In this document: positions 25,306 to 34,030 of the stretch, in pieces | Position numbering within the stretch: the first letter of the stretch is position 1 | Layout of the letters: each line of letters begins with the position of its first letter | Sequence record: PQ306573.1 | Source of the DNA: Escherichia phage vB_EcoM_PTE-Eco05 | Reading direction: 5' to 3' (one strand) | Length of the DNA stretch: 64,000 nucleotides | Position numbers and translations under genes: made by a program | Notes under the pieces: model-generated | Database searches by the model: none | Told to the model about the DNA's origin: nothing | The model's input: only the letters and a program-made list of their open reading frames with translations

Positions 25306-25893
25306 ATGCTTAAATTAGTATTCGCATGTGCTCCGACTAAAACAGTTGATGATAAACTGGAATATGCTTTTGGATTAGGTGATGGACTTCCATGGAAGCA
25401 TATCAAACAAGATATGAGTAACTTTGTTGCTCGCACTAAAAACACTGTAATGGTTATGGGTGCTAAGACATTTGCATCATTACCTCGTCTACTCCCAGAT
25501 CGTACTCATGTGGTTGTCACTGATATGGCCAGAGAACTGCCTAGGACCAAAACCAACGAACTTGCGCGTTTCTATATCACCCAATCTGAATTTATTACCT
25601 TGGTAATGGGTGGTGAAATTAACCTGTTTAGCACTGCAACTGACGTACCATTTAAACTTTCTACTGAACATGTTGATGTATCTGTTATTGGTGGCCCTGC
25701 TTTATTGAAACAAGCATTGCCTTATGCTGATGAAATCGTGATGACTAAAATCATTAAGAAATGTCGTGTTAATTCCGATGTTCAACTTGATAAAGATTTC
25801 GTCCAAGATATTATGCTTCAACGTTCTATGGTAGAATCTCATTACTACAGAATCGATGAACTCACCGAAATTACTGAGAGCGTTTATAAATGA
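25306..25893 (+). CDS. frd: Dihydrofolate reductase
   Basis: 195 aa; GLGDGLPW, VIGGPALL motifs; precedes td. Confidence 0.88.
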   Translation: MLKLVFACAPTKTVDDKLEYAFGLGDGLPWKHIKQDMSNFVARTKNTVMVMGAKTFASLPRLLPDRTHVVVTDMARELPRTKTNELARFYITQSEFITLVMGGEINLFSTATDVPFKLSTEHVDVSVIGGPALLKQALPYADEIVMTKIIKKCRVNSDVQLDKDFVQDIMLQRSMVESHYYRIDELTEITESVYK

Positions 25894-26438
25894 AACAATA
25901 CCAATACCTGATTAAAGATATCTTAGAAAATGGCTACGAAACAGACGACCGTACAGGTACAGGCACTATTGCCCTGTTCGGAACTAAATTGCGATGGGAT
26001 CTGACTAAAGGATTCCCTGCGGTAACAACTAAGAAATTAGCATGGAAAGCTTGTATTGCCGAGTTACTGTGGTTCATGTCTGGCTCTACCAATGTTAATG
26101 ATTTGCGTATTCGTACTCATGGTAGTCTTATTCAAGGTAAAACTATTTGGGACGACAACTATGAAAATCAGGCAAAAGACCTTGGATATCATAGCGGCGA
26201 ACTTGGTCCTATTTATGGTAAGCAATGGCGTGATTTTGGTGGTGTAGACCAATTGGTCAAAACTATCGACCGTATTAAAGCTCTTCCTAATGATCGTCGT
26301 CAAATAGTTTCTGCATGGAACCCGGCTGAAATTGACCAAATGGCTCTTCCTCCTTGTCATATGTTCTATCAATTTAATGTGCGTAATGGACATCTTGATT
26401 TACAATGGTACCAACGCAGTGTTGATGTTTTCTTAGGT
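25890..26438 (+). CDS. td: Thymidylate synthase, exon 1
   Basis: 183 codons ending ...QRSVDVFLG; in-frame TAA immediately follows at intron start; exon 1 + exon 2 = 286 aa. Confidence 0.88.
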
Positions 26439-27454
26439 TAATTTAGGCCTAGGTATAAGGTGACTTATACTTGTAATCTATCTAAACGGGGGACCTCTCT
26501 AGTAGACAATCCCGTGCTAAATTGTAGGACTACCCTTTAATAAATACTTCTATATAAAAAGAGGTGTTTATGAAAAGCGGAATTTATCAGATTAAAAACA
26601 CTTTAAACGGTAAAGTGTATGTTGGAAGTGCTAAAGATTTTGAGAAAAGATGGAAGAGGCGTTTTAAAGACCTTGAAAACGGTGTTCACTCTTCTATAAA
26701 ATTTCAAAGGTCTTTTAATAAACATGGTAATGTTTTTGAATGCTCTGTACTGGAAGAAATTCCATATGAGAAAGATTTGATTATTGAACGAGAAAATTTT
26801 TTGATTAAAGAGCTAAATTCTAAAATTAATGGATATAATATTGCTGATGCGTCTTTTGGCGATGTGCTTTCAAATCATCCATTAAAAGAAGAAATTGCTA
26901 AGAAACGAGCTGAAACTGTTAAAGCTAAGATGCTTAAGCTTGGTCCTGACGGTCGGAAAGCTCTTTATGGTAAACACGGAAGTAAAAATGGCCGATGGAA
27001 TCCAGAAAACCACAAGTTTTGTAAATGCGGTGTTCGCATACCATCTTCGGCCGATACTTGTGGAAAGTGCCGAAAACGTTCAGGTGAAAATAACCCGTTC
27101 TTTAATCACAAACATTCAGAAAAAACTAAAACTAAACTATCTGAAAAGATGAAAGGCAAAAAGCCAGCTAACATCAAAAAGATTTCATGCGATGGGATTA
27201 TTTTTGAATGTGCAGCCGATGCGGCTAGACATTTTGAAATTTCATCAGGATTAGTTACTTACCGTGTAAAATCTGATAAGTGGAATTGGTTCTACATAAA
27301 TGCCTAACGACTATCCCTTTAGGGAGTAGGGTCAAGTGACTCGAAACGATAGACAACTTGCTTTAACAAGTTGGAGATATAGTCTGCTCTGCATGGTGAC
27401 ATGCAGCTGGATATAATTCCGGGATAAGATTAACGACCTTATCTGAACATAATG
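26439..27454 (+). ncRNA. td group I self-splicing intron (1016 nt) carrying the I-TevI ORF
   Basis: Begins TAATT.AGGCCT.GGTATAAGGTGACTTATAC..., ends ...GAACATAATG before exon 2; length equals T4 td intron. Confidence 0.85.
26570..27307 (+). CDS. I-TevI: GIY-YIG homing endonuclease I-TevI
   Basis: 245 aa from ATG 26570; GIYQIKN...KVYVGSAKDFEKRW GIY-YIG motif; C-terminal DNA-binding region; inside td intron. Confidence 0.9.
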   Translation: MKSGIYQIKNTLNGKVYVGSAKDFEKRWKRRFKDLENGVHSSIKFQRSFNKHGNVFECSVLEEIPYEKDLIIERENFLIKELNSKINGYNIADASFGDVLSNHPLKEEIAKKRAETVKAKMLKLGPDGRKALYGKHGSKNGRWNPENHKFCKCGVRIPSSADTCGKCRKRSGENNPFFNHKHSEKTKTKLSEKMKGKKPANIKKISCDGIIFECAADAARHFEISSGLVTYRVKSDKWNWFYINA

Positions 27455-27766
27455 CTACCGTTCAACATTGCCTCGTACGCTGCCTTGACGCATATTGTAG
27501 CGAAGATGTGTAACCTTATCCCAGGTGATTTAGTGTTCTCAGGCGGCAACACGCATATCTACAGCAATCATGTAGAACAATGCAAAGAAGTTCTTCGTCG
27601 TGAACCTAAAGAGTTGTGTTCTCTTGAAATTAATTGGCCTAGTAATTTTGAGAATTGGCCTACAAAAATCCAAATGGACTGGGTTACTGGAACGATGACA
27701 CATTCTGATTTCGTTCTTAAAAATTACGAATCTCATCCAACTATCAAAGCTAAAATGGCGGTATAA
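27455..27766 (+). CDS. td: Thymidylate synthase, exon 2
   Basis: Frame resumes LPFNIASYAALTHIV... directly after intron-terminal G. Confidence 0.85.
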   Translation, partial: LPFNIASYAALTHIVAKMCNLIPGDLVFSGGNTHIYSNHVEQCKEVLRREPKELCSLEINWPSNFENWPTKIQMDWVTGTMTHSDFVLKNYESHPTIKAKMAV

Positions 27767-28021
27767 ATGATTTTACGTTTTATTAATTCATATGGCACCA
27801 CAATTTTTGAAATGAAAAATCCAAGTGAACTGGATATCCCTTCACCGAATAGTGAAATCACAGTTAAAGGTGAACGATTCATTTGTTATTCACATGAACG
27901 AATTTATGAATATCGTGAATTTTGTGGTGGTTACGGTATGGAAAAAGAACCATTGGTTTATTTCGATATCACGGTCTTGACACCTAAAGAATACGAAGAA
28001 ATTATTGCTGAGGATAATTAA
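27767..28021 (+). CDS. Hypothetical protein (nrdA.1 position)
   Basis: 84-aa ORF overlapping td stop (TAAATG). Confidence 0.45.
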   Translation: MILRFINSYGTTIFEMKNPSELDIPSPNSEITVKGERFICYSHERIYEYREFCGGYGMEKEPLVYFDITVLTPKEYEEIIAEDN

Positions 28022-28108
28022 CGCTTCAGTTTAAAAGTGTATAATAAATTAACGGGATAAATACTATCCCGTTTGGAGTAATGTCTATCAACCTATACTG
28101 AGGAATAT

Positions 28109-29533
28109 ATGCAAGTAACTAAGAGCAGTGGTGTATCCCAAAATTTTGATGCACAGAAAATTATTCAAGTCTTAACTTGGCAATGTGAAGGAACACAAAT
28201 TGACCCATATGAATTGTACGAAGAAATTAAGACCCATCTTGTCGACGGGATGAGCACCAAAGATATCCAGAAGATTTGTATTAAAGTTGCAGCTAACTCG
28301 ATTTCTGTCGAAGAACCTGATTATCAGTATGTCGCCGCCAAAGGGCTAATGTTTGCACTTCGTAAAGATGTATATGGGCAGTTTGAACCGCCTGCTTTTA
28401 TCGACCATATTTCTTATTGTGTTAATGAAGGCAAATATGACCCTGAGCTGTTGTCTAGATATTCTGCAGAAGAAATCATTTATCTTGATTCTCGGATTAA
28501 ACATGAGCGAGATTTTGACCTGACTTATGCTGGTGCTATGCAGCTTAAAGAAAAATACCTGGTTAAAGATAAAACAACTGGGAAGATTTATGAAACTCCA
28601 CAGTTTGCTATCATGGCTATCGGTATGGCCTTACACCAAGACGAAACTCATGACCGTTTGAAACATATTATTCGTTTTTATGATGCCGTTTCTACTCATC
28701 AAGTTTCATTGCCAACCCCAATTATGGCAGGTGCTCGTACTCCAACTCGCCAGTTCTCTAGTTGTGTAGTTATTGAAGCCGGTGATTCGTTAAAATCTAT
28801 TAACAAAACTTCAGCATCAATTATTGAATATATTTCTAAACGAGCTGGTATTGGTATCAACGTTGGTATGCTTCGTGCAGAAGGTTCTAAGATTGGTATG
28901 GGTGAAGTTCGACATACAGGTGTTATTCCATTTTGGAAACATTTCCAAACTGCAGTAAAATCTTGTTCTCAAGGTGGTATTCGTGGTGGTGCTGCTACAG
29001 CGTATTATCCGATGTGGCACTTAGAAGTAGAGAACCTATTAGTTCTGAAAAATAACAAAGGCGTGGATGAAAACCGTATTCGACATATGGACTACGGAAT
29101 TCAGATTAATGACCTCATGATGGAACGCCTTGGTAAAAATGATTATATTACTTTATTTAGCCCTCACGAAATGTCAGGCGAACTATACTACTCGTTCTTT
29201 GAAGATCAAGATAAATTCCGTGAGCTTTATGAGAAAGCTGAAAAAGACCCAACAATCAGAAAGAAAAGAATCAAAGCACTAGAACTCTTTGAATTGTTCA
29301 TGACTGAACGTTCTGGTACTGCTCGAATTTATCCACAGTTTGTTGATAACACGAATAACTACACTCCGTTTATTCGTGAAAAAGCTCCAATTCGTCAGAG
29401 TAACTTATGTTGTGAAATCGCTATTCCAACTAATGATGTGAATAGCCAACAAACCCGTTTAATCAAAATTAAGAAGTCGGATGTAGCTAAGTTTTATGAA
29501 GCTAATCCTGGCGGTATAATTCAAAGCAAATAA
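28109..29533 (+). CDS. nrdA: Ribonucleotide reductase large subunit, N-terminal piece (NrdA-a): ATP cone through NLCCEI active-site motif
   Basis: 474 aa; contains NLCCEIAIPT (E. coli C439/E441 equivalent) then a 28-aa tail and stop. Confidence 0.85.
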   Translation: MQVTKSSGVSQNFDAQKIIQVLTWQCEGTQIDPYELYEEIKTHLVDGMSTKDIQKICIKVAANSISVEEPDYQYVAAKGLMFALRKDVYGQFEPPAFIDHISYCVNEGKYDPELLSRYSAEEIIYLDSRIKHERDFDLTYAGAMQLKEKYLVKDKTTGKIYETPQFAIMAIGMALHQDETHDRLKHIIRFYDAVSTHQVSLPTPIMAGARTPTRQFSSCVVIEAGDSLKSINKTSASIIEYISKRAGIGINVGMLRAEGSKIGMGEVRHTGVIPFWKHFQTAVKSCSQGGIRGGAATAYYPMWHLEVENLLVLKNNKGVDENRIRHMDYGIQINDLMMERLGKNDYITLFSPHEMSGELYYSFFEDQDKFRELYEKAEKDPTIRKKRIKALELFELFMTERSGTARIYPQFVDNTNNYTPFIREKAPIRQSNLCCEIAIPTNDVNSQQTRLIKIKKSDVAKFYEANPGGIIQSK

Positions 29534-29578
29534 AGTACACAGACCGTTAATAAATAATCCATAACAAGAGGAAAAGTT

Positions 29579-30289
29579 ATGGATTATTCTAAAATTTACA
29601 ATAACCTTATTTCTAAAGCTAAGAATAGAAAATTAGATTGCTATACCGAATCACACCATATTATACCTCTGTGTATTGGTGGTTCTGATACAAAGGAAAA
29701 CCTGGTAGATTTGACACCAGAAGAGCATTACATAGCTCATCAATTATTAGTAAAGATATATCCAGATAATCATAAATTGATATTTGCCGCTAATATGATG
29801 TGTGTTTATTCTAAAGATAATATTGAACGAAAGAACACCAATAAACGCCATGGGTGGCTTAGAAGAAAATTGGCTATTTCTGTATCTGAAAATAATAAAG
29901 GCAAACCAGCTTGGAACAAAGGTATTCCTATGTCTCCAGAAGTTAAATCTCGACTTCAAACATCTTGGGTGTTTACATTTCCGGATGGTCATGAGGAAAT
30001 TCATCGAGGTCTTAACGAATTTTGTAAAGAGCATAATTTAAATCCATCTGCAATGTCAGCCGTTTGTAAAGGTAAACGGGCGCATCACAAAGGATTTAAG
30101 TGTAAGAAATTGGATAAGATTTCAGAGCTTGATAATTTAGTTTTCGTCAGTAAACCTCATCCAAAGGGATTAAAACCCCATAACTTAATTGCTGTAAAAA
30201 TAAACGGTATAGAATATCAATCAATACATCGAGCATCTAAAGCTTTAGGAATTACTAGAAAAAAGGTAGAAGAATTAAATGAATATTGA
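29579..30289 (+). CDS. Free-standing HNH homing endonuclease (MobE/Hef-like) inserted within nrdA
   Basis: 236 aa; HNH motif ESHHIIPLCIGGSDTKENLVDLTPEEHYIAH; C-terminal HTH-like IEYQSIHRASKALGITRKKV; own RBS AAGAGGA. Confidence 0.85.
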   Translation: MDYSKIYNNLISKAKNRKLDCYTESHHIIPLCIGGSDTKENLVDLTPEEHYIAHQLLVKIYPDNHKLIFAANMMCVYSKDNIERKNTNKRHGWLRRKLAISVSENNKGKPAWNKGIPMSPEVKSRLQTSWVFTFPDGHEEIHRGLNEFCKEHNLNPSAMSAVCKGKRAHHKGFKCKKLDKISELDNLVFVSKPHPKGLKPHNLIAVKINGIEYQSIHRASKALGITRKKVEELNEY

Positions 30290-31268
30290 TTATGAATTTG
30301 TAGATGAATTTTACGAAGATGATGAGTATACTACAATAAAAGTTATTGAAAACAAGGGAGAAGTGGGGCTTTGTACTCTCTCTGCATTCGTATTAGATAA
30401 ATTTGATTGGCAAGACCAAGATAAAATTAATGAACTTGCTGAAGTACAAGTACGTGCACTTGATAACCTGTTAGACTATCAAGATTATCCGGTTCCAGAA
30501 GCTTTAAAAGCTAAAAAGCGTCGTAATCTTGGTGTTGGTGTTACGAACTATGCTGCATGGTTAGCTTCTAACTTTGCTTCATATGAAGACGCTAACGATT
30601 TGACTCATGAATTGTTTGAGAGATTGCAATATGGCCTTATCAAAGCATCAATCAAACTCGCCAAAGAAAAAGGATGTTGCGAGTATTATTCAGACACTAA
30701 ATGGTCTAGAGGCGAATTACCTATCGACTGGTACAATAAAAAGATTGACCAAATCGCAGCCCCGAACTACGTCTGTGACTGGGAAGAACTTCGAGCTGAA
30801 CTCAAAGAACATGGAATTCGTAACTCAACGTTGTCTGCACTCATGCCTTGTGAGTCAAGCAGTCAAGTATCGAACTCTACAAACGGGATTGAGCCCCCAC
30901 GTGGTCCAGTAAGTATTAAAGAATCTAAAGAAGGCAACTTCCGACAGGTTGTTCCTAATATCGAACATAACATGAGTCTTTACGACTACGCGTGGAAACT
31001 TGCTAAGAAAGGTAATAAACCTTATTTGACCCAAGTTGCTATCATGTTGAAATGGGTGTGCCAATCTGCTTCTGCTAATACTTACTACGACCCTGCAGTA
31101 TTTGAGAAAGGTAAAGTGCCAATGTCAGTAATGCTTGACGATCTGCTTTACTTCTGGTACTTTGGCGGAAAAAACCTCTACTATCATAACACCCGTGATG
31201 GGTCAGGTACAGATGACTATGAATTAGAAACACCTAAAGCTGAAGATTGCTCTGCTTGTAAGCTTTAA
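30279..31268 (+). CDS. nrdA: Ribonucleotide reductase large subunit, C-terminal piece (NrdA-b)
   Basis: 329 aa; GLCTLSAF (E. coli C462 equivalent), C-terminal CSACKL redox tail; ATG embedded in HNH gene 3' end with AAGGTAG RBS. Confidence 0.85.
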   Translation: MNIDYEFVDEFYEDDEYTTIKVIENKGEVGLCTLSAFVLDKFDWQDQDKINELAEVQVRALDNLLDYQDYPVPEALKAKKRRNLGVGVTNYAAWLASNFASYEDANDLTHELFERLQYGLIKASIKLAKEKGCCEYYSDTKWSRGELPIDWYNKKIDQIAAPNYVCDWEELRAELKEHGIRNSTLSALMPCESSSQVSNSTNGIEPPRGPVSIKESKEGNFRQVVPNIEHNMSLYDYAWKLAKKGNKPYLTQVAIMLKWVCQSASANTYYDPAVFEKGKVPMSVMLDDLLYFWYFGGKNLYYHNTRDGSGTDDYELETPKAEDCSACKL

Positions 31269-31323
31269 GACTTTTGATTATAATTTACTCATGGATGAGT
31301 TAATAACTAAGTGAGAAAATATA

Positions 31324-31999
31324 ATGAGTACAGTTTTTAATACACAACAAGTCGATGTTTTGAACGAACCGATGTTCTTTGGTTCTGGTCTTGGTCTTGC
31401 ACGGTATGATATTCAGCGTCATAAAGTTTTTGAAGAACTTATAGAAAAATCCTTGTCATTTTTCTGGCGCCCCGAAGAGGTAAACTTAATGTTGGACTCT
31501 GCACAGTTCAATAAGCTTCCTCAGTTCCAACAGGACATCTTTACAAACAATCTTAAGTATCAATCATTATTGGATTCTATCCAAGGCAGGGCCCCATCTG
31601 CGGTACTTATGGCACTGCTTTCCGACCCTTCATTAGATACGTGGGTTGCAACATGGACATTCAGTGAAACTATTCACTCTCGTTCATATACTCATATTAT
31701 GCGAAATCTTTATACCGATCCATCCAAAGTATTTGATGAGATTGTATTAGACGAAGCAATCATGAAACGAGCTGAATCAATAGGTAAATATTACGATGAT
31801 GTTCTAGTCAAGACTCGTAATTGGGAAAATGCTAAAGAATTTGTAGAACTAGCTAAAGAATCTCCTGATGCCGACTTTCGTTTAAACCGAGCTATTAAAC
31901 AAGAAGCCGAAGCTAAACGTGCTTTAATGAAATCTCTTTACCTCTGTTTGCACGTTATTAATGCCTTAGAAGCTATTCGTTTTTATGTATCTTTTGCGT
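31324..31999 (+). CDS. nrdB: Ribonucleotide reductase small subunit, exon 1
   Basis: Ends ...EAIRFYVSFA + first nt of Cys codon; in-frame TAA at intron start. Confidence 0.85.
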
Positions 32000-33090
32000 A
32001 AAATGCGCCTTTAAACGGTAACGTTTATCGAAAACTCCTTTAATTGCTGGAAAGTCCTTTATAGGAAAACTAGCAGCCAAGGTTTTGCTTGCACCTTTAA
32101 TTAGTATAATATAAATATGATTATACTTTTAAGAGGATGCACAATTGAACTATAGAAAAATTTGGATAGATGCTAACGGACCTATACCTAAAGATTCTGA
32201 TGGAAGAACATACGAAATCCATCATAAAGACGGTAACCGTGAAAATAATGATTTAGATAATTTGATGTGCCTTTCTATACAGGAACATTATGATATACAT
32301 TTAGCTCAAAAAGATTACCAGGCTTGTCATGCTATAAAGCTTAGAATGAAATATTCTCCTGAAGAAATTTCTGAATTAGCTTCTAAAGCCGCAAAATCTA
32401 GAGAAATCCAGATTTTTAATATCCCTGAAGTACGAGCTAAAAATATTGCCTCTATTAAATCTAAGATAGAAAATGGTACATTTCATCTTTTAGACGGTGA
32501 AATACAGCGTAAATCTAATTTAAATAGAGTTGCATTAGGTATACATAATTTTCAACAAGCTGAGCATATTGCAAAAGTTAAAGAACGCAATATTGCAGCT
32601 ATAAAAGAAGGTACTCATGTATTTTGCGGTGGTAAAATGCAGTCAGAAACTCAATCAAAACGGGTAAATGACGGTTCACATCATTTCTTGTCAGAAGACC
32701 ATAAGAAAAGAACATCAGCAAAAACATTAGAAATGGTTAAGAACGGAACCCATCCTGCACAAAAAGAAATCACATGTGATTTCTGCGGTCACATTGGTAA
32801 AGGTCCTGGATTTTATCTAAAACATAATGACAGATGTAAATTAAATCCAAATAGAATTCAATTGAATTGTCCATATTGTGATAAGAAAGATTTATCACCA
32901 TCAACATATAAACGATGGCACGGCGACAATTGCAAAGCAAGGTTCAACGACTAGTCTTCGGACGTAGGGTCAAGCGACTCGAAATGGGGAGAATCCCTCT
33001 GGGATTGTGATATAGTCTGGTCTGCATAGTAATATGTAGCAGTTCATAAGAGAACGGGTTGAGAATTAGCGAGCTCAATCGAACATAACG
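32000..33090 (+). ncRNA. nrdB group I intron (~1091 nt) carrying full-length I-TevIII
   Basis: Exons 31999/33091 rejoin to give FAC-TFNFHKNMEIMEGNAK; intron 3' end GAACATAACG resembles the td intron 3' end; boundaries inferred. Confidence 0.75.
32145..32954 (+). CDS. I-TevIII: HNH-family homing endonuclease I-TevIII (full length, 269 aa)
   Basis: TTG start 7 nt after AAGAGGA RBS; EIHHKDGNRENNDLDNLMCLSIQEH HNH motif; C-terminal Cys-rich zinc finger; inside nrdB intron. Confidence 0.8.
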   Translation: MNYRKIWIDANGPIPKDSDGRTYEIHHKDGNRENNDLDNLMCLSIQEHYDIHLAQKDYQACHAIKLRMKYSPEEISELASKAAKSREIQIFNIPEVRAKNIASIKSKIENGTFHLLDGEIQRKSNLNRVALGIHNFQQAEHIAKVKERNIAAIKEGTHVFCGGKMQSETQSKRVNDGSHHFLSEDHKKRTSAKTLEMVKNGTHPAQKEITCDFCGHIGKGPGFYLKHNDRCKLNPNRIQLNCPYCDKKDLSPSTYKRWHGDNCKARFND

Positions 33091-33593
33091 GTACCTTTAA
33101 CTTCCATAAGAACATGGAAATTATGGAAGGTAATGCAAAGATTATGAAGTTCATTGCTCGTGACGAACAACTCCATCTCAAGGGTACTCAGTACATTATC
33201 CGTCAACTTCAATCTGGTACTGATGGCGATGAGTGGGTTCAAATTGCTAAAGAATGTGAACAAGAAGCAGTTGACATTTTTATGGAAGTAAATCGTCAAG
33301 AGAAGGAATGGGCTGCACACCTCTTTAAAGACGGTACATGTCCAGGTATCAATACGCAGAGTATGTGTGCTTTTGTTGATTACTTGACTGTGTCTCGTAT
33401 GAAACAGTGTGGTTTGCCATGCCCAATCACTGATGCTCCGACCAAGCATCCGTATCCTTGGATTCGTGAATATCTTAACTCTGATTTAGTTCAAGCAGCT
33501 CCTCAGGAAGTTGAAATCAGTTCTTATCTTGTTGCACAAATTGATAATGATGTGGACCAAAATGTAATCAATTCATACAAAAAATATTTCTAA
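33091..33593 (+). CDS. nrdB: Ribonucleotide reductase small subunit, exon 2
   Basis: MEGNAKIMKFIARDEQLHL; exon 1 + exon 2 ~392 aa. Confidence 0.8.
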
Positions 33594-33619: not shown

Positions 33620-34030
33620 ATGAAAGATATTGCCGCCGAATATTCCTTTATTAAATATATAGAATTGGAGCTATTAGAAGATGCAACAATTAAAACAGTT
33701 GATGTCCCTAATAAGAAAAATGTCATATATGCTATTGCTATAGATGACGAACTTGTGTATATTGGTAAAACCAAGAATTTAAAGAAACGCATTAACTATT
33801 ATCGAACAGCCATAAATCGAAAAGACCAGACTTCAGATTCAAGAAAATCACTTATGATTTTGGATGCCTTAATGCAAGGCAAAAAGGTTGAATTCTGGGC
33901 CCGCCAATGTTTTGACCTTTCAGTCACCAACGAACTTGGTTCAATGACCATCGCAACAATGGACCTTGAAGAACCACTTTTTATCAAAAAGTTCAACCCG
34001 CCTTGGAATATCCAACATAAGAAAAAGTAG
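33620..34030 (+). CDS. denA: Endonuclease II (DenA), GIY-YIG-like
   Basis: 136 aa; VYIGKTKNLKKRINYY motif; T4 DenA length and position. Confidence 0.85.
   Translation: MKDIAAEYSFIKYIELELLEDATIKTVDVPNKKNVIYAIAIDDELVYIGKTKNLKKRINYYRTAINRKDQTSDSRKSLMILDALMQGKKVEFWARQCFDLSVTNELGSMTIATMDLEEPLFIKKFNPPWNIQHKKK

Follow-up and report, generated by a model that had tools for sequence, protein, structure and literature searches.

The td-nrdA-nrdB cluster of a Mosigvirus-like phage probably carries three mobile elements, all of known kinds

What interrupts the nucleotide-metabolism genes of Escherichia phage vB_EcoM_PTE-Eco05, and how unusual are the interruptions? We analyzed a stretch of 64,000 nucleotides (nt) from this phage (sequence record PQ306573.1; hereafter, "the window"), in which td, encoding thymidylate synthase, nrdA, encoding the large subunit of ribonucleotide reductase, and nrdB are each interrupted. 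An initial annotation, made from the sequence without database searches, had described the region as a homing-endonuclease hot spot, with three endonuclease genes within about 7.7 kb, and had taken it to suggest a mosaic genome with an unusually complete set of active selfish elements. Our analysis indicates that the td-nrdA-nrdB cluster of this Mosigvirus-like phage very probably carries three independent mobile elements of known kinds: a group I intron with I-TevI in td, a group I intron with I-TevIII in nrdB, and a free-standing cassette with a mobE-like endonuclease gene in nrdA. All three belong to known kinds, the nrdA cassette being a new, uncharacterised member of the type described in phage Aeh1. 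This is what the initial annotation missed: judged by its sequence, the insert in nrdA is homologous to the mobE cassette that has been characterised in Aeh1, charged tails included.

The way these elements would work follows two established patterns. Each intron carries an endonuclease gene in a peripheral loop (the GIY-YIG enzyme I-TevI in td; I-TevIII, with an HNH domain and two zinc fingers, in nrdB), and in a mixed infection the enzyme would cut an intron-less allele a few bases upstream of where the intron inserts, after which repair by recombination would transfer the intron, with a short piece of flanking exon, to the cut genome (homing). The split in nrdA comes from a free-standing HNH cassette of the mobE type, which would not be removed by splicing and presumably also spreads by cleavage and homing; the cassette supplies a stop codon, a gene of its own and a fresh start codon and so turns nrdA into two genes. 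It adds about 28 codons on each side, which give the first product, NrdA-a, a basic C-terminal tail and the second, NrdA-b, an acidic N-terminal leader. By homology with Aeh1, NrdA-a and NrdA-b together with NrdB would assemble into an active reductase that requires the tails.

We set the boundaries of the elements by BLAST against uninterrupted relatives and by reading the junctions directly, using as uninterrupted reference alleles those of FL31 for td, of AV110 for nrdB, and of JM10, FL31, AV110 and T4 for nrdA. The 7.7-kb query matches 909 phage records, almost all of them T-even phages of enterobacteria. The closest is Escherichia phage JM17 (Mosigvirus), with 97.5% identity over 100% of the query and an identical gene layout, and over a further 24 kb of the window, identity to several Mosigvirus genomes is 97-98%, placing the window in a Mosigvirus-like T-even phage. 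Comparison with the td, nrdB and nrdA alleles of other T-even phages, which the initial annotation had proposed as a check, confirmed the boundaries and put the splice junctions where T4 has them (Table 1).

Table 1. Positions of the three elements and of the genes they interrupt, numbered along the window (aa, amino acids)
Feature	Position	Strand	Basis
td group I intron, 1016 nt	26439..27454	+	extra sequence relative to intron-less FL31 td
I-TevI, GIY-YIG homing endonuclease, 245 aa	26570..27307	+	ATG matching T4 start
Hairpin sequestering I-TevI ribosome-binding site and AUG	26533..26580	+	-16.2 kcal/mol, z -4.4, 0/200 shuffles as good
nrdB group I intron, 1091 nt	32000..33090	+	extra sequence relative to intron-less AV110 nrdB
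I-TevIII, HNH and two zinc fingers, 269 aa, TTG start	32145..32954	+	RB3 homology; Pfam HNH_3 48.7 bits
T4 late-promoter consensus TATAAATA 5' of I-TevIII	32110..32117	+	sequence
Mobile cassette: tail-coding DNA, spacer, mobE-like gene, leader-coding DNA	29444..30365	+	absent from JM10, FL31, AV110, T4
nrdA-a, N-terminal 474 aa of ribonucleotide reductase large subunit	28109..29533	+	alignment to E. coli R1
nrdA-a basic tail, residues 447-474	29447..29530	+	net charge +4
Hairpin, mobE-like Shine-Dalgarno in loop, AUG in 3' arm	29553..29588	+	-13.8 kcal/mol, z -4.9
mobE-like HNH endonuclease, 236 aa	29579..30289	+	Aeh1/T4 MobE homology, Pfam
nrdA-b, C-terminal 329 aa	30279..31268	+	alignment to E. 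coli R1
nrdA-b acidic leader, residues 1-29	30279..30365	+	net charge -8; YEDDEYTT
td exon 1 (183 codons)	25890..26438	+	collinear with intron-less td of FL31 up to 26438
td exon 2	27455..27766	+	BLAST against intron-less FL31, junction reading, spliced translation
nrdB exon 1	31324..31999	+	collinear with intron-less nrdB of AV110; junction as in T4
nrdB exon 2	33091..33593	+	BLAST against intron-less AV110, junction reading
denA (endonuclease II)	33620..34030	+	Pfam GIY-YIG 28 bits; T4 denA position

In td, exon 1 ends ...CTTAGGT and the intron starts TAATTT, with an in-frame TAA, and ends ...GAACATAATG. Spliced in silico, the gene encodes a complete thymidylate synthase of 286 amino acids (aa), and T4 uses the identical junction; the intron and the full-length I-TevI within it are as initially annotated. 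The splice sites read ...AGGU/UAA...AAUG/CUA (slashes mark the junctions), the U before the 5' site being paired with G in P1 and a G ending the intron. The intron cores are 93.9% and 98.6% identical to those of T4, compared to only 72-79% for the td exons, and taken as a whole the intron has 99.7% identity to that of phage TuIa and 90% to that of T4. Exon and guide have changed together in P1, pairing CUUAGGU with GCCUAGG in the window and CUUGGGU with GCCUGAG in T4 and fPS-2, and this joint change supports an intron that functions, and would be spliced, in this genome.

The start of I-TevI given in Table 1 lies two codons inside the frame listed by the open reading frame (ORF) program, which begins with GTG at 26564. 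The protein has the domain order of an N-terminal GIY-YIG nuclease, a linker zinc finger and a C-terminal DNA-binding region, all scoring above the Pfam cut-offs (GIY-YIG PF01541, 51.6 bits; I-TevI_ZnF PF22635, 63.4; I-TevI_DNA-bd PF20987, 107.3). Solved domains of T4 I-TevI (PDB 1MK0, 1LN0 and 1I3J) match it at E 1e-54 to 1e-66, and it keeps Y6, Y17, R27, E75, N90 and the four zinc-finger cysteines. Codon 31, at window positions 26660-26662, encodes Arg for the His31 of T4.

The nrdB intron has the extent initially assigned to it, with splice sites ...GCGU/AAAAUGCGC...AACG/GUA. The claim that both introns begin with an in-frame TAA directly after the 5' splice site holds for td; in nrdB the final exon base supplies the T of the TAA (31999-32001), so that this triplet spans the site. 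The resemblance at the 3' ends is as claimed: the td intron ends as given above and the nrdB intron ends ...GAACATAACG, both with GAACATAA(T/C)G as their final bases. In a relaxed Rfam scan of the region, matches to RF00028 were confined to the 3' cores of the two introns, with 36.1 bits (E 1.8e-6) at 27176-27406 for td and 33.9 bits (E 8e-6) at 32799-33039 for nrdB, against a gathering score of 50 bits. The nrdB intron differs from that of RB3 at 2 of 1091 nt (99.8% identity), and the T4 intron is the same sequence minus about 490 nt of ORF, in keeping with the initial statement that the T4 copy is truncated and that of RB3 full-length. In the 3' region, the pairing of a stem is preserved relative to T4 by a two-sided change (G-C to A-U), a compensatory change that supports function of this intron, too, and would be consistent with its splicing.

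The proposed TTG start of I-TevIII is preceded by AAGAGGA, and the annotated I-TevIII of RB3 uses the identical TTG at the identical intron offset (146), the two proteins differing only at D23Y. The enzyme in the window retains H26, H27, N39, H48, C211, C214, C242 and C245, residues that matter by mutagenesis (PMC1865063), together with two CX2CX12-13HX3C zinc fingers. RB3 I-TevIII is active and drives homing, cutting 14-16 bp upstream of the point where the intron is inserted (PMC1865063). Upstream of the gene, besides the late-promoter consensus, there is a MotA-box-like TGCTTG at 32086, and the fPS-2 record annotates a middle promoter at the equivalent place.

The interruption of nrdA is of a different kind. 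Uninterrupted NrdA reads ...NLCCEIAIPTNDVNS-PDAEI-GLCTLSAF..., and in the window a cassette of about 920 nt takes the place of about five codons (PDAEI). NrdA-a ends ...NDVNS-QQTRLIKIKKSDVAKFYEANPGGIIQSK-stop, the mobE-like gene starts 45 nt on with its own Shine-Dalgarno sequence and ATG at 29579, and NrdA-b begins MNIDYEFVDEFYEDDEYTTIKVIENKGEV-GLCTLSAF, its gene overlapping the mobE-like stop by 11 nt. The HNH gene does, as initially described, split an nrdA that is uninterrupted in all four reference phages. Residues 3-447 of NrdA-a align to 7-455 of E. coli R1 and include the equivalents of C225, N437, C439 and E441, and residues 24-323 of NrdA-b align to R1 454-751 and include those of C462, Y730/Y731 and the C-terminal Cys pair, so that the complete set of catalytic residues is present, shared out between the two proteins.

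With Aeh1 MobE the mobE-like protein shares 45% identity over 227 aa (E 1e-57), and with T4 MobE it shares 45% over the N-terminal 130 aa. It and Aeh1 MobE are reciprocal best relatives: in the phage collection, Aeh1 MobE has no closer relatives than these coliphage genes, and identity falls to only about 31% in the hits ranked after them. Its Pfam match to I-HmuI_NUMOD-like scores 37.5 bits, and the motif HH-x14-N-x8-H is visible. The GC content of the cassette is 32%, compared to 38-40% in the flanks. Two variants of the cassette occur among coliphages, with differences confined to endonuclease residues 117-189, the NUMOD-like region; for instance, relative to HY01 and F2 almost all cassette differences fall at window 29927-30145, and the tail, spacer, nuclease domain and leader are near-identical. 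The restriction of the differences to a DNA-binding region suggests that modules have been exchanged inside the endonuclease.

Upstream, the mobE-like gene and I-TevI are built alike (29544-29588 and 26536-26580, respectively): a late-promoter-like TAATAAATA, then a strong hairpin over the ribosome-binding site and start. The late-promoter-like element directly precedes the mobE-like hairpin and overlaps the 5' arm of the I-TevI hairpin. The mobE-like hairpin is preserved in a metagenomic relative, L011, by compensatory changes, and Aeh1 and a second metagenomic lineage, L013, have strong hairpins of their own at this place. Regulation by a late promoter and a hairpin that hides the ribosome-binding site is known for I-TevI and T4 homing endonucleases (PMC2988022). 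Expression of I-TevI and of the mobE-like gene would probably be restricted to late transcripts, because the hairpin hides each ribosome-binding site and the late-promoter-like element lies in the 5' arm of the hairpin. The start regions of I-TevIII and nrdA-b showed no hairpin better than those of shuffled sequences.

In Aeh1 the NrdA-a tail is basic and the NrdA-b tail acidic, deletion of both lowers activity about 2000-fold, and mass spectrometry detected both in the mature proteins (PMC3045599). The alignment of the NrdA-a tail in the window to that of Aeh1 scores 42 (shuffles 19.4 +/- 3.9) and that of the NrdA-b leader scores 63 (shuffles 26.1 +/- 5.1), with 0 of 2000 shuffles reaching the score in either case, and on this basis we regard both as homologous to the Aeh1 tails. 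Protein searches and contig look-ups added three metagenomic split-nrdA lineages, L011, L013 and L015, of which L011 and L013 are T4-like contigs with an endonuclease gene. The motif L[IVF]K[IV][KR]KS[DE]VxKF on NrdA-a is common to all five lineages, and YEDDEYTT on NrdA-b is found in every lineage but L015, the most distant. Between the window and L011, the codons of the NrdA-a tail show 11 synonymous and 8 non-synonymous changes, a ratio that resembles the 169:113 of the NrdA-a core, so the tail evolves as constrained coding sequence.

Three observations on the metagenomic lineages stand by themselves. In L015 (2478-5008; ENA ERZ27315285 k141_73620), nrdA is split at the identical loop into genes of 481 aa and 335 aa, which have the basic tail and the acidic leader and are separated by a 77-nt gap that lacks an endonuclease gene; the surrounding genes (5'-3' exonuclease, RuvC, RNase H, MazG) are unlike the T4 neighbourhood. 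A split with tails but no endonuclease indicates that here the split seems to have outlived the endonuclease. L013 (201-1439) encodes a thymidylate synthase of 412 aa, about 125 residues more than the usual length of about 286. L011 (6616-7224) has an extra HNH and NUMOD3 gene (202 aa) between a denA-like gene and rnlA, a site that is empty in the window.

We also considered where the tails might have come from. Among metagenomic NrdA sequences, P0112 has a continuous insertion of about 55 residues in the MobE-site loop. Derivation of the tails from such an insertion was rejected, as 977-1985 of 2000 shuffles reach the alignment score (355 for Aeh1), and descent of the acidic leader from a C-intein by decay found no support, its similarity being no better than that of shuffles. 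Searches with the leader itself returned little: a 71-aa query in a word-indexed protein search gave a single fragment, and a 44-aa query against a library of 1.8 billion representatives gave the same fragment and a low-complexity false match (P0242), neither of them informative about unsplit ancestors.

On balance, the evidence tips slightly towards a mobE-type endonuclease and its two charged tails forming one portable cassette that neutralises its own damage. A conserved tail module would then travel with the endonuclease and let it invade the active-site loop of nrdA across genera, the hosts being Mosigvirus, Tequatrovirus, the Aeh1 group and two metagenomic lineages. If this is true, the Aeh1 solution would be a family of single origin and not a one-off. 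A 2022 preprint mentions, as an unpublished observation, "several other Myoviridae" with such insertions and conserved extensions; our literature search found no published analysis of the coliphage version of the split nrdA.

Evidence for mobility comes from a comparison of the window with Yersinia phage fPS-2, a Tequatrovirus that carries the same three elements. Identity between the two is 83% and 71% in the td exons, 78-79% in the nrdA cores, and 86% and 80% in the nrdB exons. It rises to 94-98% in the td intron cores, 99-100% in the nrdA cassette (tail, spacer, gene and leader) and 99.8% in the nrdB intron, with 88% in the I-TevI ORF. The elements thus form islands in which identity is 94-100%, against 70-86% around them, a pattern that argues for recent horizontal spread; on this comparison the genome is mosaic, as the initial annotation had suggested. 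The edges of the islands are also informative. Those of the nrdA cassette are sharp. On the left, Mosigvirus sequence continues to about 29431; on the right, positions 30366-30392 have Tequatrovirus-type bases before the Mosigvirus pattern resumes, and this stretch of <30 nt appears to be a co-converted flank. About 200 nt of exon upstream of the nrdB intron are 93-98% identical to fPS-2, which fits the upstream position of the I-TevIII cut.

How unusual is this combination? The td intron with its ORF is present in 198 phage records, the full-length nrdB intron in 84 and the nrdA cassette in 34, and among the cassette carriers every combination of intron states is represented. The three together are rare: of the 909 matching records, JM17 and fPS-2 alone cover at least 95% of the 7.7-kb query. 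In T4, too, a stretch of about 7.2 kb holds I-TevI, mobE and a deleted I-TevIII. A homing-endonuclease hot spot is therefore the normal condition of this locus in T-even phages, and the complete set is rare while each of its parts is ordinary. The initial description of the set as unusually complete was right about the rarity and overstated the rest, the parts being common and T4 having equivalents; it also presumed that the elements are active.

Several observations weigh against this account of the three elements. Rfam at gathering thresholds gives no match in the whole window, and both intron matches to RF00028 fall under the gathering score; sub-gathering scores are usual for introns that contain a large ORF, but they still fall short of the family's threshold. 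The Pfam HNH score of the mobE-like protein is 18.2 bits, below the cut-off of 21.4. I-TevI has 30 substitutions relative to T4, including H31R on the catalytic surface. The tails are near-invariant within the coliphage group, so that selection on them is visible only in deeper comparisons. T4 nrdA is not essential in laboratory hosts, and viability of the phage is consequently no proof that the split enzyme works. This dispensability would fit an insertion that inactivates nrdA, the halves being decaying fragments and the phage relying on the host reductase; in addition, no splicing element is detectable, and the halves are unannotated in some records, such as HY01. We consider inactivation very unlikely, as both halves are full-length with all catalytic residues, the NrdA-a tail and both halves show more synonymous than non-synonymous changes, at least 34 phage records and five diverged lineages have retained the arrangement, and the homologous Aeh1 enzyme is active (PMC3045599). 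It is harder still to credit that the insert is removed, as an unrecognised intron, a degenerate split intein or by ribosomal bypass, and a single NrdA chain restored. The other two interruptions in the cluster are introns, split-intein nrdA genes lie nearby in sequence space (P0006, P0036), a degenerate-intein origin was raised by Crona et al. (PMC3045599), and MobA, a relative of the mobE-like enzyme, is associated with bypassing in T4 gene 60. However, even at E up to 10 no RNA family, RF00028 included, matches 29444-30365, a stop codon closes NrdA-a and a separate ATG opens NrdA-b, neither half contains an intein domain according to Pfam, and the acidic leader is no closer to a C-intein than shuffled sequence. 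Split-intein genes are also cut about 17 residues upstream, before Cys439, and the detection of both Aeh1 tails in mature proteins (PMC3045599) points the same way.

A further question is whether all three enzymes still home. One or more may be inactive or serve another role, e.g., in regulation, which would make the hot spot a fossil: H31R is on the catalytic surface of I-TevI, the TTG start of I-TevIII is weak, degenerate copies are common (many records have the T4-type deleted I-TevIII or ORF-less introns), and I-TevI is known to double as a repressor. We think this unlikely, given that all the ORFs are full-length with motifs shown to be needed, that near-identity across genera argues for very recent transfer, and that RB3 I-TevIII, one residue different, is active and drives homing (PMC1865063). 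Our preferred reading is still that of three independent mobile elements.

The surroundings of the elements are those of a T-even phage. The gene order, 32 - frd - td - nrdA - nrdB - denA - rnlA, matches T4, and denA is a GIY-YIG relative and not a homing or mobile element. A paralogue search (phmmer) and a motif search of the 64-kb window found no homing-type nuclease gene besides the three. A scan of the region for sigma-70 promoters and terminators gave counts equal to those in shuffled sequence. Between td and nrdA (27767-28021), the window has one 84-aa DUF5496 gene where T4 has nrdA.2 and nrdA.1; this is the least conserved stretch of the region, with 55% identity to fPS-2. The gap between nrdA-b and nrdB (31269-31323) is 55 nt long and holds no gene, the mobE and nrdB.1 that T4 has in that position being absent.

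What does the locus add to what is known? As initially annotated, the finding adds little: the nucleotide-metabolism genes of T-even phages are classic homes of homing endonucleases, and the introns are near-identical to published ones. The nrdA cassette is the useful part, as it brings the only biochemically studied type of reductase that is "split without splicing", that of Aeh1, into tractable E. coli phages. The five-lineage comparison pinpoints conserved residues in the tails, and the sharp edges between empty and filled cassette sites make the cleavage site and the co-conversion tract directly testable between sequenced relatives with the cassette, such as JM17 or fPS-2, and without it, such as JM10 or FL31.

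Among the known systems, the td intron is closest to those of T4 and TuIa, with which it shares the gene, the insertion site, the three-domain GIY-YIG enzyme and the arrangement of late promoter and hairpin. It is 1016 nt long here and 1017 in the T4 record NC_000866.4; relative to T4, I-TevI has the 30 aa differences noted above, H31R included, and the P1 guide fits a different exon codon. The nrdB intron corresponds to that of RB3 (Eddy and Gold 1991; Robbins et al. 2007, PMC1865063), which is near-identical and encodes the same 269-aa enzyme; RB3 is a Tequatrovirus, whereas the host of the window's intron is Mosigvirus-like. T4 mobE is of the same HNH family and neighbourhood as the mobE-like gene of the window, but it is 141 aa long, intergenic between nrdA and nrdB, and without the NUMOD-like C-terminal region. 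T4 MobE targets nrdB (PMC2988022).

The closest counterpart of the cassette is the nrdA-a/mobE/nrdA-b arrangement of Aeh1 (Friedrich et al. 2007; Crona et al. 2010, PMC3045599), inserted in the same loop, between the equivalents of Cys439/Glu441 and Cys462. The three genes encode 474, 236 and 329 aa in the window and 473, 237 and 323 aa in Aeh1. In both, the mobE stop overlaps the nrdA-b start, the cassette is AT-rich, a hairpin covers the mobE ribosome-binding site, and the basic NrdA-a tail and acidic NrdA-b leader have shared motifs. However, the endonucleases share only 45% identity and the NrdA proteins 53-61%, and the gene order differs: the window has the T4-like td-nrdA-nrdB, whereas the nrd genes of Aeh1 lie elsewhere in its genome, apart from its td and denA. 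The biochemistry of the split reductase comes from Aeh1 only, the coliphage version being known from sequence.

The "fractured" nrdA of the split-intein type (Dassa et al. 2009, PMC2677866) is also two genes divided near the active site. There the cut falls ahead of Cys439 and lies some 17 residues upstream of the MobE site, and the halves carry intein blocks (...VHN/C, the slash marking the splice point) and are ligated by protein splicing; the tails in the window, unlike these halves, have no significant similarity to inteins. Six metagenomic C-terminal halves of NrdA (P0006, P0013, P0036, P0048, P0115 and P0116) begin with a C-intein of this type (...VHN/C[LMAQ]EI). For both the split-intein nrdA and that of Aeh1, it has been proposed that opposite charges bring the halves together (PMC3045599).

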